From: Fusobacteriaceae bacterium
Lineage (GTDB): Bacteria; Fusobacteriota; Fusobacteriia; Fusobacteriales; Fusobacteriaceae
Assembly (NCBI GenBank): GCA_051648485.1
Contig: JBOFFH010000144.1
Location: forward strand, 2,042-66,041
Reading direction: 5' to 3'
DNA length: 64,000 nt
Position 1 is the stretch's first letter. The number at the start of each line of letters is the position of its first letter. Position numbers and translations under genes: made by a program. Below are positions 52,536-58,314 of this stretch, in pieces. Under the pieces are notes generated by a model. That model saw only the letters and a program-made list of their open reading frames with translations, did no database searches and was not told the origin of the DNA.

Positions 52536-53798
52536 TTATCTTTTAAAATCTATTTTCTCTTCTTCCATTAAAAAAATTTTAGACTGTTTTGGAGTAGATT
52601 CTGCTATAATTTTACCCTCTCTAATAGAGTGGGTCACTGTAGCTTGAAGCCTTACTACATCAAAATCATTATCTTCTGATAAAATTATGCAGTTTCCTGG
52701 TTTTCCAATCTCTATTCCATAATGATCTTCTATGCAAAGAGTTTTTGCACTGTTTTTAGAAATCATATCTAAAGATTTAGATATTTCTTCATATCCCATC
52801 ATATGACATACATGAAGCCCCATATTAACAACCGATATCATATTTCCATTTCCTAGTGGATACCAAGGATCAAAAATATCATCATGTCCAAAACAAACAT
52901 TTATTCCTGCTTCTAAAAGTTCTTTAACTCTTGTAACTCCTCTTCTTTTAGGATAAGTATCAAATCTTCCACCTAAATGTATATTTACTAAAGGATTAGC
53001 TACAAAATTTATTTCCGATTCTTTTAACAATCTAAAAAGTTTATATGTGTAGGCATCATTGTATGAACCCATAGCTGTTGTATGACTTGCAGTAACTTTT
53101 GGTCCAATTCCAGCAGCCCAAGCTTCTGCTGCAAGTACTTCTAAAAATCTTGATTGTTCATCATCTATCTCGTCACAATGAACATCTATAAGCCTATTAT
53201 ATTTAACAGCTAACTTCACTATTTTTCTTATAGATTCAACTCCCCAATCTCTTTGATATTCAAAATGTGGTATTGCTCCTATTACATCTGCACCATTTTT
53301 TAAAGCTTCTTCTAAAAGAGCTTCTCCATTTGGATAAGATAAAATTCCTTCTTGTGGAAAGGCAACTATTTGTATTTCTACAAATTTTTTCATTTCCTCT
53401 TTTAACTCTACCATAGCCTTTAGAGCCATTAGCGTTGGATCAGTTACATCTATATGAGTTCTTACAAACTGTATTCCATTAGAAATTTGCCACTTCAGTG
53501 CTTTTCTTGCTCTAGCTTTTACATCTTCAAAGCTTAGTATAGCCTTTCTTTCACTCCAACACTCTATACCTTCAAAAAGAGTACCACTCATATTCCATCT
53601 AGGTTCTCCTGCACTCATAGCTGTATCCAAATGAATATGAGGTTCTACAAATGGTTCCATAACAATATTTCCACAAGCATCTATAATTTTTGTAAACTCT
53701 CCCTCTATTTTTTTTTCTATTTTAGAAAATTTTCCATCACTTATCAAAATATCCACTAAATCATTACTATTTCTAAGCTTTGCATTTTTAATTAGCAT
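52536..53798 (-). CDS. codA: Cytosine deaminase CodA (amidohydrolase superfamily)
   Basis: [15 protein letters not shown] and GHDD form the metal ligand ladder. It overlaps the codB stop by 11 nt. Confidence 0.9.
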
Positions 53799-55041
53799 AT
53801 TTTACTCCTTTTTTTGTTTCAGTTACTTTAATTCCTAAATAATAAACAAACATTGTTATTATAACATTATTTATTGGGGCAATACCAGGTAAAATTTTAG
53901 CACTTACTACTCCTGTTAACCATGCCAATATAGCCACATAGTTTATAGAAACAAACTCCATTTCTTGCATTTTTTTATATTCACCTTTATTTACAAAGAA
54001 GAAATCACAAATAATTATAGCTCCAATCCCTGGAAGTAAAGTATTTAAAAGTGCTAACCATCCAATAAAATTGTTGTAAAGAGGAAGAGCAAAAATTGTT
54101 CCTAAAACTCCATTTATCGTTACCATTTTGCTCTTTGAAACTTTTGTTATACTTGAAAATCCCAATCCCGAAGAATAAAGAGCATTGTCATTAGTTGTCC
54201 AAATATTAAACCCTAAAACTATTATAGCTGGAACTATTATTCCTTGAGTAAACATTACATCTGAAATATCTGAGGTTCCAAAAACTTTTCCTCCTACAGC
54301 TCCAAAAATAAACATTAAAGAATTTCCTAGAAAGAAAGCCACTACTGTACTTATTACTCCTATTTTTGAATTTTTAGCAAATCTTGAAAAATCAGCTGTT
54401 AAGCTTCCACCACTTATAAAAGAGGCAATACACATTCCTATTCCTGCCATTACTGAAATAGGAGCTACTGGTGATATACTCATCACAGCTTTTATTCCTC
54501 CGGCATGATTTACTGCATTTATAACTGAAGTTCCACCTAAAATTGCAATACTCGGAACTGCTATGGCACTCAGTATCGTCACGGCTTTTATTCCAAAATA
54601 AGCAGTTCCTGTCATAAGGATTCCTGAGATAGCCACTATAATCTTTATATCTATATTCGGATATATTTTATTTACTGGTATTGCAAACATAGATACTCCA
54701 ACTCCAAACCATCCTATTTGAGTTAACGCTAAAAGAAAAGAGCCGAGATAAGAACCTTTTTCACCAAATGAATATTTAGCCAAAATATGTGTTGAAAGAC
54801 CTGTTTTAGAGCCTATGTGCCCCAGTGCTCCTGTAAATATACCTAAAATAAGATTTCCAACTAAAACTGCAAATATAAATTCTATTCCTGTAAGCCCTAT
54901 TCCTAAAGTTCCACCCGTCCACATACTAGCCGAGAAAAAAGTAAATCCTAACATTATTACAAACATTGAAAACATACCTCTTCTCGACTCTATTGTTACC
55001 GCTCCGAAAGAAAAATCTAAATCTTTATTTTTTGACATCAT
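53788..55041 (-). CDS. codB: Cytosine permease CodB (NCS1 family)
   Basis: 12-TM NCS1-like protein upstream of and overlapping codA. SD GGGGGG lies before the tandem ATGs at 55041 and 55038. Confidence 0.85.
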
Positions 55042-55066
55042 ACATCCCCCCAAGATAATATTTTGA

Positions 55067-55121
55067 TTAAAAAAAAATGGAATAGAAATTACTGCTAAAT
55101 TGCAGTAACTTCTATTCCATT
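55067..55121 (-). terminator. Strong intrinsic terminator in the codBA leader (candidate attenuator)
   Basis: Minus strand aatggaatagaagttactgc-aattta-gcagtaatttctattccatt (20-bp stem with one mismatch), followed by nine T. It ends about 20 nt before the codB SD. Confidence 0.7.
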
Positions 55122-55232
55122 ATTAAAAACAAATATATTTGATTTTTTTAAAATTTGGAAAAATAAATTTAGAGATAATAACAAAATAAAATTAAAAAAT
55201 TTTAACTTCCTTTTCTTTCTTAATCTCTTCAT
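55095..55232 (-). CDS. 45-codon leader/small ORF (MKRLRKKRKLKFFNFILLLSLNLFFQILKKSNIFVFNNGIEVTAI)
   Basis: SD AGGAGG (55239-55244) lies 6 nt before the ATG at 55232, downstream of a consensus promoter. The stop TAG (55095-55097) is at the loop/3'-arm junction of the terminator. Confidence 0.45.
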   Translation of the reverse strand: MKRLRKKRKLKFFNFILLLSLNLFFQILKKSNIFVFNNGIEVTAI

Positions 55233-55263
55233 TTTCTTCCTCCTTTTTTTCATACTAGTAAAA

Positions 55264-55292
55264 ATTGTATCAAAGTTTATAATACTTGTCAA
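55264..55292 (-). promoter_or_regulatory. Near-consensus sigma-70 promoter driving leader ORF/codBA
   Basis: Minus strand TTGACA (55292-55287), exactly 17 nt, then TACAAT (55269-55264). Confidence 0.65.
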
Positions 55293-55371
55293 TATTTTTT
55301 ATTTTACTATACTTTTATCTTTTTTAAAGGTAATATTAATTATGTATCATTTAAAATTTTAGGAGGTTTTT

Positions 55372-55917
55372 ATGAATAAAATTGCTGTTCTTTTGGCTGA
55401 AGGATTTGAAACTATTGAGGCTCTTGCACCTATAGATGTTTTTAGAAGAGGAGGACTAGAAGTTACAACTGTTTCTATAACAGACAATCTTCAAGTTACT
55501 TCTTCTCAGAAAATTGAAATTCTAGCCGACACCATTATTTCTAAAGTCGACTTCAGTCAGTATTCTTTACTAGTTTTGCCTGGTGGATATCCTGGATATG
55601 TTAATTTGAATGAAAACTCAGAAGTTCAAGAGGTTATAAAAAACTTTATTTTAAACAATAAATATATTGGTGCTATCTGTGGTGGTCCATCTGTTTTAGA
55701 AAAATTCGAAATTTTAGAAAAAAATATTTTTACTTGCCACCATTCTTTAAAAAAATTAACTGAACATAAAAATTTCAGAAAAGAAAATGTTATTCATAGC
55801 GCTAATTTAATAACTTCTTCAGGAGCAGGACACTCTCTAGATTTTGGTTTTGAACTAGCTAGTCTTTTCTTATCTGAAGAAAAACTATTATCAATCAAAA
55901 AAGGCATGGAATTATAA
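55372..55917 (+). CDS. DJ-1/PfpI family protein (YajL/ThiJ-like)
   Basis: LLAEGFE..E, LPGG and the nucleophile elbow AICGGPSVL are present. SD AGGAGG lies upstream of the start. Confidence 0.85.
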   Translation: MNKIAVLLAEGFETIEALAPIDVFRRGGLEVTTVSITDNLQVTSSQKIEILADTIISKVDFSQYSLLVLPGGYPGYVNLNENSEVQEVIKNFILNNKYIGAICGGPSVLEKFEILEKNIFTCHHSLKKLTEHKNFRKENVIHSANLITSSGAGHSLDFGFELASLFLSEEKLLSIKKGMEL

Positions 55918-55920
55918 AAA

Positions 55921-55954
55921 GCAAAAACTCTGAAAAAAATTTCAGAGTTTTTTA
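55921..55954. terminator. Bidirectional terminator between DJ-1 gene and decarboxylase-arginase gene
   Basis: aaaactctgaaa-aaaa-tttcagagtttt. Confidence 0.75.
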
Positions 55955-55965
55955 ATTTTTAATTA

Positions 55966-58314
55966 TTAGTTAGGATTTAAAACATAATTTGTAAGTTCAT
56001 TTACAAACTCTCTAGTTTTTCCATTTTTATCATTTACCGGATTAAATTCTACTATATCCACAGAAGTTACAAAGTAATTCTTAAATATAAATTTAAATGT
56101 TTGGAACATCTCTTCAGGAGTGAATCCGTTTCTTACTGGCGTACTTACTCCAGGAGCAAACTCAGGATCAACCGAATCTACATCAAAACTTATGTGAACT
56201 TCATCCACTTGTAAGTAATCTTTAATCTCATCTAAAATTACCTCTAAGCCTTTATGAATAACTTCGTCATAACTTATATATTTAACTCCAAGTTCATCCA
56301 TAAATTCACGTTCTTTATGATCTAAATCACGTGCTCCTAAAACTACCACATTTTTACTTTCTATTTTAGCACCTTCATAAAAACAGTTTACTAAATCACG
56401 GTCTCCATATCCTTGAAGAAGAGCCAAAGGCATTCCATGAATATTTCCAGACGTTGTTATTTCATCTGTATTCATATCCCCGTGAGCATCTATCCAGATA
56501 ACTCCTATCTCTTTCTCTAATGCAACTCCAGATATACTTCCTAAAGCTATTGAATGATCTCCTCCTATTGTTATAGGACGATATCCATCTCTTACTGCTT
56601 GATTTACTTGTTGTGCTAATTTTTCACAAGTATGCAATATCGTATTTTTATATTTTAAATTCCAATCATTGAAGTTTTCTTTTTGTTTCTCCACATCAAT
56701 TATTGTCATTTCATCAAATGTATCCGGGAAATATTCTTGAAGTACATCTATTGAGAACTCAATTCCCGCTTTATTAGCACCCAAGTTCATAGGAACTCCA
56801 AACATTACACTTTTCATTTTTTCAGTGTATATATAAACAGCATCTTCCTCTTCAATTACATTTATGTTTATTAAATCAGGGTCTTCCATGCCTTGAATAT
56901 GAAGTTTAGCATCTTTCAAATCACTAATATAATCTATTGTTTCACGAGTTATACGTTCTCCTGGAACAATAATAGGAATCCCTGGAGGATAAGCCATTAT
57001 CAATTCACCTGAAATTTTACCTTCACTTTCTTCAAAAAGTATTTTATTTTTTTCAGAATAGAAAGCTTCTCTTGGAATTAAAACTAATTCAGGTATAGCA
57101 GGCATTTTTAAAAGCTCTCTATCTATTTTTCTGCCTTGCTCATAAAATCTGTTACTGATATCTTTTAATGCTGCTAAAAGTATTTCTATACTTTCTTCTG
57201 TATCTCCTATAGTTATAAGTCCCAGAACATTATAAAAATCTGAAAGTTCCATTTGAATGTTATAGTCATCTACAAGAAGTGTTTCTAATTCAAACCCTGT
57301 GATTCCCATTTCTTTAGCTGAAATAGTTATTTTTGTGGTATCAAAAGCAAAAATACCTTCACGCCCCAATATCTCTTTTCCAAAAGAATACATTCCTGGT
57401 ATTCTATTTATTTCAGCTCTTAAATAATTAGCAAGTTTTATTGTTTTATCTAACAACTCACGTCCTTCTGTAGCTATATGTCTTCTAGCACAATCTATCG
57501 ATGCAAGTAGTGGATATGATGGAGATGTAGTCTGAAGTAAACTAAGTATTTGCTGCACACGATTTACATCTATTCTATCAGAATTAACATGTAATAATGA
57601 CATTTGAGTCAAAGCTCCCAAAATTTTGTGGGTACTTTGTGCACACATATCTACACCAACATCTACTGCTGAAACTGGTAAATCATCATGAAAATGTAAG
57701 TGTGGCCCATGAGCCTCATCAACTATAATTGGTATATCATATGAATGAACTATATCTGTTATTTTTTTTAAATCTGTTGCTATACCATAATAAGTTGGAT
57801 TTATTAACAATACAGCTTTTATATCCGGATGTTGCTTAAGCATAGTTTCTACCGTTTGAGGCTTAACACCATGAGCTATTCCCAAATTTTCATCTATCTC
57901 TGGATTCATGTACACTGGTATAGCTCCACTTAAAGTGATTCCAGCCGATACTGATTTGTGAACATTTCTTGGCACAAGAATTTTTTCCCCAGAATTAACA
58001 ACTGCCATTATCATGGTTTGAATTGCTCCTGAAGTTCCATTTACTGCAAAAAAACTCTTTTTTACTCCATAAGCATCTGCTACTAATTCTTGAGCTTCTT
58101 TTATACAACTTTTCGGTTGATGAAGTCCGTCAACCATTTTAAAGATAGTCACATCTATTGAAAAAATTCCATTTCCCATAAATTCGTAGTATTCAGGATC
58201 TACTCCTTTTCCTCTTTTATGCCCTGGAACATGAAATGGGGTTATATCTCTTCCCGCGTATACGTCTTTTAAAGTTGAAAAAATTGGCGTTTTTTGTTGG
58301 TCTAGCTTTGACAT
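55966..58314 (-). CDS. Fusion protein: Orn/Lys/Arg decarboxylase (PLP, OKR_DC_1 type) N-terminal, arginase-family ureohydrolase C-terminal
   Basis: The N-terminal roughly 490 aa has FHVPGHKRG, NGTSGA, DEAHG and the PLP-Lys context QSTHK. The C-terminal roughly 290 aa has GGDHSIALG, DAHGDMNT...SGNIHGMPLA and SFDVDSVDP, an arginase Mn-ligand ladder of RocF type. Confidence 0.85.
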   Translation of the reverse strand: MSKLDQQKTPIFSTLKDVYAGRDITPFHVPGHKRGKGVDPEYYEFMGNGIFSIDVTIFKMVDGLHQPKSCIKEAQELVADAYGVKKSFFAVNGTSGAIQTMIMAVVNSGEKILVPRNVHKSVSAGITLSGAIPVYMNPEIDENLGIAHGVKPQTVETMLKQHPDIKAVLLINPTYYGIATDLKKITDIVHSYDIPIIVDEAHGPHLHFHDDLPVSAVDVGVDMCAQSTHKILGALTQMSLLHVNSDRIDVNRVQQILSLLQTTSPSYPLLASIDCARRHIATEGRELLDKTIKLANYLRAEINRIPGMYSFGKEILGREGIFAFDTTKITISAKEMGITGFELETLLVDDYNIQMELSDFYNVLGLITIGDTEESIEILLAALKDISNRFYEQGRKIDRELLKMPAIPELVLIPREAFYSEKNKILFEESEGKISGELIMAYPPGIPIIVPGERITRETIDYISDLKDAKLHIQGMEDPDLININVIEEEDAVYIYTEKMKSVMFGVPMNLGANKAGIEFSIDVLQEYFPDTFDEMTIIDVEKQKENFNDWNLKYKNTILHTCEKLAQQVNQAVRDGYRPITIGGDHSIALGSISGVALEKEIGVIWIDAHGDMNTDEITTSGNIHGMPLALLQGYGDRDLVNCFYEGAKIESKNVVVLGARDLDHKEREFMDELGVKYISYDEVIHKGLEVILDEIKDYLQVDEVHISFDVDSVDPEFAPGVSTPVRNGFTPEEMFQTFKFIFKNYFVTSVDIVEFNPVNDKNGKTREFVNELTNYVLNPN

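Follow-up and report, generated by a model that had tools for sequence, protein, structure and literature searches.

Upstream of codB and codA, in a 64,000-nucleotide (nt) stretch of DNA from a Fusobacteriaceae bacterium (contig JBOFFH010000144.1; the whole stretch is referred to as the window), a short open reading frame (ORF) on the minus strand runs into an intrinsic terminator (Table 1). We propose that the two form an attenuator of the operon. The preliminary description of this DNA had named the operon codBA, and the equivalog and subfamily scores above cut-off agree with it: CodB reached 524 bits against NCBIfam NF008241 (cut-off 326) and CodA 720 bits against NF006685 (cytosine deaminase, cut-off 483). 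CodB of the window is also 54.6% identical to the annotated CodB of Escherichia coli K-12 (tblastn). By these matches, the genes under the putative attenuator belong to pyrimidine metabolism. The start of codA overlaps the end of codB by 11 nt. Two in-frame ATGs are available to codB (55041 and 55038), and both the relatives and a database protein of 416 amino acids (aa) favor the one at 55038.

Table 1. Features of the codBA leader region and of the operon downstream (window coordinates; SD, Shine-Dalgarno sequence; UTR, untranslated region).
Feature	Coordinates	Strand	Details
Promoter of the leader-codBA transcript	55264..55292	minus	-35 TTGACA 55292-55287, 17-nt spacer, TG 55272-55271, -10 TACAAT 55269-55264
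5' UTR, short, A-rich	55233..55256	minus	A7 run and SD AGGAGG 55244-55239, 6 nt ahead of the ATG
Leader ORF, 45 codons	55095..55232	minus	ATG 55232, stop TAG 55097-55095
U-rich tract, 84 nt, 56% U	55122..55205	minus	inside the leader ORF, just 5' of the hairpin
Terminator hairpin	55076..55121	minus	5' arm 55121-55102, loop 55101-55096 (6 nt), 3' arm 55095-55076
U-tract, nine T	55069..55077	minus	first two T pair at the stem base
Spacer, 30 nt	55039..55068	minus	holds the codB SD GGGGGG 55051-55046
codB, cytosine permease	53788..55038	minus	416 aa from ATG 55038; Pfam PF02133, NCBIfam NF008241
codA, cytosine deaminase	52536..53798	minus	420 aa; Pfam Amidohydro_3, NCBIfam NF006685

Architecture of the codBA leader

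The promoter matched the consensus at 11 of 12 positions and carries an extended -10 TG; it is the sole minus-strand site of such quality between 54000 and 56500. Transcription is predicted to start at about 55256 and to continue with AGUAUGAAAAAAA. Reiterative transcription and start-site switching as at E. coli codBA were ruled out, as no T run follows the predicted start.

The leader peptide, MKRLRKKRKLKFFNFILLLSLNLFFQILKKSNIFVFNNGIEVTAI, is identical to database protein P0001. In dinucleotide shuffles, 44 codons stayed open in 1.2% of the trials, and the other two frames of the leader hold 5 and 3 stops. An SD-led ORF of 12-90 codons with its stop in a terminator hairpin was found once in the 64-kb window, and this case is the codB leader.

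The stem of the terminator is a perfect helix of 20 base pairs (bp) with one G-U pair and six G-C pairs (-28 kcal/mol). The T and A of the leader TAG close the loop as its last two bases, and the 3' arm begins with the G. Four terminator-like sites were seen in the region compared to 0.8 expected. The T run ends 17 nt before the codB SD, and a consensus scan of the minus strand from the terminator to codB (55075-55039) detected no promoter-like site. An intrinsic terminator therefore stands between the sole promoter and the first structural gene.

Most of these features had been noted in the preliminary description and were recovered here: the TTGACA-17-TACAAT promoter at the same positions, AGGAGG followed after 6 nt by an ATG and a 45-codon ORF of the same sequence, the 20-bp terminator with nine U (by sequence and by folding), the TAG at the junction of loop and 3' arm (base by base) and the lack of space for a separate codBA promoter after the terminator. 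One detail needs correction: the end of the ORF does form the 5' arm of the hairpin, but the arm spans about seven codons (AAT GGA ATA GAA GTT ACT GC) and not the last eight.

The first third of the leader ORF is purine-rich and the rest is U-rich. The leader had also been called rich in U before the hairpin, and indeed the U content of the 84-nt tract exceeds that of each of 2,467 coding windows taken from the 64 kb (sense strand of long ORFs; mean 32%, maximum 52%). On its composition, this tract is a candidate region for pausing of RNA polymerase (RNAP) that is sensitive to uridine triphosphate (UTP). Known RNA families were not recognized: an Rfam search of 54900-55500 at a permissive E<=10 gave only chance microRNA-like matches to the hairpin, and at gathering score the whole window returned one tRNA and nothing else.

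The leader module in related codB loci

codB loci and leader peptides were collected from genome, metagenome and sequencing-run assemblies, which yielded 13 distinct leader variants. They derive from a Cetobacterium metagenome-assembled genome (MAG), a Fusobacteriaceae MAG and unclassified AT-rich metagenome or sequencing-run assemblies; the closest CodB relatives are those of the Cetobacterium MAG (79% identity) and of the Fusobacteriaceae MAG (68%). On these identities, the window probably derives from a Cetobacterium-like bacterium within Fusobacteriaceae. Common to all 13 variants are a promoter, an A-rich UTR with GGAGG, a short ORF, an A/U-rich tract, a terminator and codB, and thus the layout of a terminator between promoter and first structural gene. 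In the relatives, a promoter equivalent to that of the window lies upstream of the leader, and the A run and the GGAGG are conserved. The ORF has 37-62 codons in the variants, the distance from ATG to hairpin is 94-141 nt, stems have 13-20 bp (-14 to -28 kcal/mol), and the terminator is 17-59 nt away from the codB start codon (99 in L051).

Eleven of the 13 variants have their stop codon within the hairpin: some in the 5' arm, some in the loop, and others at the 3' arm or just inside it. Leaders of 45 codons end at the loop/3'-arm junction (the window, L069/70, L071) or in the loop (L082, which has a GTG start, L001 and L073-80). The 37-codon leader of L086 also stops in the loop, the 52 codons of L087/88 end at the start of the 3' arm, the 5' arm of L002 (39 codons) opens with the three bases of the stop, and the 47-codon leaders (L051/72, L081, L083) stop inside the 5' arm. 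In L084 (62 codons), the hairpin is read in another frame than in its relatives, and the ORF runs past the hairpin and U tract to a terminal TAG that overlaps the codB SD. L085 is frameshifted, with 4 codons in the ATG frame. Conservation of the overlap between ORF and terminator had been suggested as a check of the attenuator reading; 12 of the 13 variants keep an SD-led ORF that ends in, or crosses, the hairpin.

The genes upstream of the module vary and include those for DJ-1, a decarboxylase-arginase fusion, a metallophosphoesterase, an ArsA-like ATPase and an SBF transporter. Since the upstream genes change while the module stays with codB, the module belongs to codB. The hairpin sequences diverge widely among lineages yet always fold. 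Where the stem has changed in relatives, pairs are kept via G-U wobble, with A-C mismatches at one position, and compensatory double changes were observed as well (G-C to A-T at the fourth pair in L001; A-T to T-A between L086 and L085).

In all variants, the final 40 nt ahead of the hairpin are 85-95% A+U and 42-62% U, and in leader groups A and B the first third of the ORF contains 9-15% U. U is raised at codon positions 1, 2 and 3 of the leader relative to CodB. As CodB is a membrane protein itself, the U-richness is not just a by-product of encoding a hydrophobic peptide. In group D, the rise is chiefly found at the synonymous third position (0.51-0.70 vs. 0.26-0.34).

The reading frame of the leader is open with a chance probability of 0.004-0.04 per lineage, and the other frames hold 1-9 stops each. 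Compared to codB in the same pairs, the leader showed a high ratio of nonsynonymous to synonymous divergence (dN/dS 0.24-0.84 vs. 0.05-0.14), and its dN is 3-6 times that of codB; for the window leader the ratio is 0.24-0.41 vs. 0.05-0.08 for codB. The highest 19-residue hydropathy of the peptide ranges from 0.73 to 1.81 among the variants, so hydrophobicity is not conserved. These patterns indicate that the reading frame is maintained and the peptide is only weakly constrained. The preliminary description had proposed to weigh conservation of frame and geometry against that of the peptide, and it is the frame and its reach into the hairpin that are kept, with the peptide evolving fast. Synonymous divergence of the leader is lower than that of codB (group A: 0.27-0.39 vs. 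0.66-0.87), which argues for constraint at the nucleotide level. An N-I-F-V motif was considered as peptide conservation across lineages and discarded; it consists of A/U-only codons and its position is fixed to the hairpin rather than to the stop.

Two kinds of additional RNA structure were looked for. Folding the leaders without the 3' arm and comparing duplex energies with those of shuffled sequences gave no antiterminator of the trp type: in none of the 13 variants did the 5' arm pair with upstream leader sequence better than in mononucleotide shuffles (fraction at least as good 0.24-0.99). Minimum free energy folds were computed for seven lineages, and in most of them the leader SD pairs with a U/C-rich segment farther downstream. 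An SD-sequestering hairpin was nevertheless dropped as an established feature, because a purine-rich start beside a U-rich body is always predicted to pair and folds of the leader without the terminator reached z-scores of only -0.7 to -2.9. Such pairing might, on weak statistical grounds, limit the decision to the first ribosome.

Outside the Fusobacteriaceae group, a different element occupies the position upstream of codB. We scanned 17 loci from Clostridia, Bacilli and Tissierellales (CodB 56-63% identical) with Rfam, and in 14 of them a PyrR-binding site and a terminator are located directly upstream of codB. L019, L047 and L052 gave no PyrR match at gathering score, although L052 shows the PyrR core by eye; the same holds for core and terminator in L089 (64% identity, about 1100-1320). 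Loci whose CodB is at least 66% identical to that of the window carry the leader-ORF module instead of a PyrR site. The PyrR site RF00515 (core UCCAGAGAGG) was not detected in the window, either at gathering score or at E<=10, nor in L001, L002 and L051. PyrR sites with terminators before codB were located in L003-L015, L026 and L027 (about 2760-2960 in each). As far as such binding sites identify it, codBA is a member of the PyrR regulon in these Clostridia and Bacilli lineages. With PyrR attenuators at 14 of 17 orthologues, premature termination that responds to uridine nucleotides is widespread among Firmicute-type codB orthologues. The position upstream of codB is thereby tied to pyrimidine-responsive premature termination, and the Fusobacteriaceae group appears to have a different sensor there.

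Further observations concern the leader and its surroundings. L069 (3204-3916) and L070 (273-985), from two independent samples, have an intact leader with 84% peptide identity to that of the window, but codB and codA encode only 131 aa and 101 aa; an internal deletion seems to have inactivated the operon. About 100 nt separate terminator and codB in L051 (2401-2499), and the extra stretch contains GGCAAAACC, a motif also found 3' of the terminator in L001. On the plus strand of the window, a promoter-like site (TTGACA-16-GATAAT, 11/12, 55032-55059) points antisense into the leader, toward the DJ-1 gene. The codB start (ATGTCAA), read as its reverse complement, supplies the -35 box of this site, and the same arrangement was seen by eye in L069 (18-nt spacer), L071 (TTGACA-17-TATAAT) and L082 (15-nt spacer). 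The site might drive antisense transcription of the attenuator; alternatively, the Met-Ser-Lys start and the A/U-rich spacer might generate it as a by-product.

Proposed mechanism and alternative explanations

We propose that the element is a cis-acting attenuator of codBA that works by ribosome occlusion, like that of pyrBI, and is probably set by UTP-sensitive pausing of RNAP. We favor this reading as a whole with modest confidence. Dependence of the attenuator on translation is, judging from the architecture, quite likely; UTP as the signal, to which the U-richness and the analogy with pyrBI and PyrR point, is a more tentative proposal. We infer all three components of the reading, namely translation of the leader ORF, suppression of termination by this translation and UTP as the input. 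The preliminary description had offered an attenuator as its first interpretation, and the conservation of the ORF/terminator overlap, the missing downstream promoter, the missing antiterminator and the PyrR-controlled orthologues lend it support.

In the proposed mechanism, transcription would begin at the single strong promoter, and the A-rich 5' end and strong SD would load a ribosome on the 45-codon ORF, with the purine-rich first third favoring early loading. RNAP would then cross about 85 nt of 56% U before it meets the 20-bp hairpin and U9. With no ribosome close behind, the hairpin would fold and the transcript would end about 30 nt before the codB start, so that the default state would be OFF. 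A leading ribosome that had caught up would occupy the final codons or the stop, which are part of the hairpin; the stem could then not form, and RNAP would read into codBA. What is regulated would be how far the ribosome trails the polymerase, a gap that UTP-dependent pausing in the U-rich tract would set: at low UTP, RNAP would pause there and the ribosome would catch up, resulting in read-through and in more cytosine uptake and deamination to uracil, and at high UTP, RNAP would outrun the ribosome and terminate. An increase of cytosine salvage at low UTP would be physiologically sensible and would match the logic of PyrR.

A ribosome covers about 12-13 nt downstream of its A-site codon. In every canonical variant, a ribosome at the stop would therefore remove most of one hairpin arm. 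In E. coli, moving a stop from 28 to 5 nt before a terminator lowered termination from about 90% to less than 10% in a translation-dependent manner (PMC4824070), and tight coupling across pyrL prevents formation of the terminator (PMC5021804).

Several observations weigh against this reading. The ATG frame of L085 is shut after 4 codons (MRVT), which leaves this variant without a canonical ORF, with terminator and codBA intact. On closer reading, it is not the clean counter-example with a 4-codon ORF for which it was first taken: 2 nt further on, a GTG starts a run of 29 codons whose end is 13 nt short of the hairpin (L085 101-260), and these codons are part of a 42-codon open stretch displaced by a frameshift. 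L085 may be an attenuator in decay after a frameshift, or its two ORFs may form a termination-reinitiation arrangement. Furthermore, a genome of low G+C content (28.7% in the 64-kb window) and the coding of a hydrophobic peptide partly predict the U-richness. Group D leaders share the block ILFLTDVPYVIxGR (dN/dS 0.08, L051 vs. L083), which is superfluous to a simple occlusion model. The block (RNA GAUGUYCCYUAU...GGAAGARGU, with synonymous differences) is located at 2270-2310 in L051, 154-194 in L081, 1337-1377 in L083 and 1335-1375 in L084. Its segment GAUGUYCCYUAU matches the leader SD as a complement, and an exchange of C and U opposite a G leaves the pairing unaffected; due to this complementarity, selection on the peptide and selection on the RNA are inseparable. 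Finally, in Bacillus subtilis RNAP generally outpaces the ribosomes.

The same occlusion machinery might respond to an input other than UTP, such as translation capacity or growth rate or the supply of Phe-, Asn-, Ile-, Leu- or Lys-tRNA, and codBA would then be transcribed only when ribosomes trail the polymerase closely. A growth-rate input has been proposed for the E. coli ampC attenuator. All architectural evidence fits this explanation equally well: the sequence holds nothing specific to UTP, and the leader consists of nearly nothing but A/U-only codons (N, I, F, K, L, Y). However, the genes regulated are those of pyrimidine salvage, their orthologues are under control of PyrR, a sensor of uridine nucleotides, U is enriched at synonymous positions, and no run of one regulatory codon exists. 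We consider an input other than UTP unlikely, even though it is the alternative that survives best.

Alternatively, the ORF might be incidental to an attenuator in which an RNA-binding protein, a small RNA or the RNA itself senses the signal. This would account for L085, which retains the terminator and a AAUAUAUUU-type tract without a canonical ORF, as well as for the conservation of synonymous sites beyond that of codB and for the predicted pairing of the SD. It does not account for a frame that is open in 12 of 13 variants against the low odds in each lineage and that always has a strong SD. The RNA also lacks the marks of a riboswitch, with no Rfam match at E<=10, no antiterminator and fold z-scores of only -0.7 to -2.9, and sequence of 85-95% A+U near the hairpin is poor aptamer material. 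An incidental ORF is improbable in our view.

The preliminary description had also considered a genuine small membrane peptide or type I toxin gene with its own terminator, which would leave codBA to leaky read-through or to an unrecognised promoter. The window peptide does have a polybasic N terminus and one hydrophobic stretch (maximum hydropathy 1.81), the ORF is predicted by gene callers, an antisense promoter-like site is present, and the leader is intact in L069/L070 despite truncated codBA. Nevertheless, hydropathy reaches only 0.73-0.9 in L086, L051 and L083, the leader evolves at several times the dN of codB and has no Pfam or NCBIfam family, and the ORF of L084 crosses the terminator to the codB SD. 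The leader is moreover always joined to the codB 5' region at the distances given above, with no promoter between. The evidence disfavors a peptide gene of its own, which we regard as very improbable.

Least probable of all is a nascent-peptide sensor of the TnaC or SpeFL type. In this scenario, the group D block or the N-I-F segment could sense a pyrimidine-related metabolite in the ribosome tunnel, and a ribosome arrested at the stop or close to it would keep the terminator from closing. Three features would agree with such a sensor: 11 variants have the stop within the hairpin, four lineages have an N-[ILV]-F-type motif 12-14 residues ahead of the stop, and the group D block is conserved as a peptide despite synonymous changes. 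Against it, the C-terminal residues vary by lineage (AI, AF, AA, LY, TN, KL, EK, KV), an N/I/F motif is expected from any A/U-only sequence, the overall dN/dS is high, and the frame of L084 across the hairpin differs from that of its relatives. We know of no ligand-sensing arrest peptide that acts by direct occlusion of a terminator, without Rho or an antiterminator.

Comparison with known systems and neighboring genes

The proposed ribosome-occlusion attenuator of codBA has its closest functional likeness, as far as architecture can tell, in the pyrBI attenuator, and it also resembles that of pyrE. UTP-dependent pausing and coupling at pyrBI and pyrE were reportedly described by Turnbough and Switzer in 2008, and UTP-sensitive pausing by Roland et al. 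in 1988. In the E. coli MG1655 record, pyrL has 44 codons (45 in the window leader), an 8-bp G+C-rich hairpin inside the ORF and 88 nt from ATG to hairpin, and its stop is located 3 nt before the pyrB start codon, just past the pyrB SD (AGGAGA). The pyrBI terminator is known to lie within the 135-bp leader gene (PMC4824070). Both systems have a single promoter, an SD-led leader ORF, a U-rich stretch and then an intrinsic terminator 20-30 nt ahead of the first structural gene of a pyrimidine-related operon, and no antiterminator; the ribosome itself is the anti-terminating agent at pyrBI and would be so at codB. The ORF of L084 even ends on the SD of the downstream gene, as pyrL does.

The differences are the following. 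The codB leader belongs to another phylum and precedes the salvage operon codBA rather than the biosynthetic pyrBI. Its peptides are unrelated to PyrL by eye, and since the leader peptide has no match in Pfam or NCBIfam, it is not a PyrL homologue. Its stop is inside the hairpin in 11 of 13 variants, whereas the pyrL stop is beyond the hairpin, and its stem is A/U-rich and has 13-20 bp in contrast to the short G+C-rich stem of pyrBI. An SD-sequestering pairing is predicted in the codB leader, and UTP-sensitive pausing, a property of pyrBI, is suggested here by composition. Every architectural feature of pyrBI and pyrE that we tested is present at the sequence level, and only homology to PyrL is absent.

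At rph-pyrE, a terminator before a pyrimidine gene is likewise suppressed by a ribosome that finishes an upstream ORF near the hairpin. The upstream ORF there is the full-length rph, which ends just before the hairpin, whereas the codB leader is a dedicated short ORF that ends inside. PyrR attenuators (RF00515) share the position, the output of premature termination and presumably the physiological signal with the codB leader. They differ in that the PyrR protein binds a conserved stem-loop and in having an antiterminator and anti-antiterminator, none of which is found in the window or its close relatives.

The trp, his, leu and pheA leaders are similar in that a short translated leader controls an intrinsic terminator. 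They rely on runs of regulatory codons and mutually exclusive 2:3 and 3:4 hairpins, whereas the codB leader has neither a conserved run of regulatory codons nor an antiterminator, and its stop is inside the terminator. Terminators of the trp/his/leu/pheA type are located more than 20 nt beyond the leader stop (PMC4824070). Arrest peptides (TnaC, SpeFL, SecM) have a conserved arrest motif at a set distance from the codon of stalling; the codB leaders have C termini that vary across lineages, and those of group D share a conserved block.

E. coli codBA comprises the same genes and, like upp and pyrC, responds to pyrimidine supply by UTP-sensitive start-site switching or reiterative transcription, without a repressor protein; the corresponding response of the window operon is one we infer. 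Both mechanisms operate on initiation and depend on a T run at the start site, which the predicted start in the window lacks; the control there would be exerted by the downstream terminator. Reiterative transcription has been described elsewhere (PMC6524683).

The codB leaders probably represent a new family within the known but rare ribosome-occlusion mechanism, an independent reinvention in an under-studied phylum. In full-text literature searches, we came across neither a codBA leader peptide nor an attenuator of this kind from Fusobacteria. To our knowledge, direct ribosome occlusion tuned by nucleotide-sensitive pausing has been documented essentially only for the enterobacterial pyrBI and pyrE. 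If our reading is correct, the mechanism arose independently in Fusobacteriaceae, ribosome occlusion can replace a PyrR protein switch at an orthologous operon, and transcription and translation in Fusobacteriota are coupled closely enough for a pioneer ribosome to control termination. The natural variants, with stops in the 5' arm, the loop, the 3' arm or beyond and one frameshift, would provide a ready series for relating ribosome position to termination efficiency. Annotation would also gain, as the leader ORFs of 37-62 codons are now unannotated or listed as "hypothetical proteins".

A DJ-1-family gene diverges from the leader on the plus strand, from 55372. In a blastn search of the region against a plasmid collection, this gene gave the sole match, in Ilyobacter. 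Farther upstream, the minus strand encodes a 782-aa protein (55966-58314) in which an Orn/Lys/Arg decarboxylase (PF01276, PF03711) is fused to an arginase/agmatinase-family domain (PF00491). The fusion, also present upstream of the leader in L069, could convert arginine to putrescine within a single polypeptide. The DJ-1 and decarboxylase genes converge on a 13-bp hairpin with T runs on both strands (55923-55952), which resembles a bidirectional terminator.

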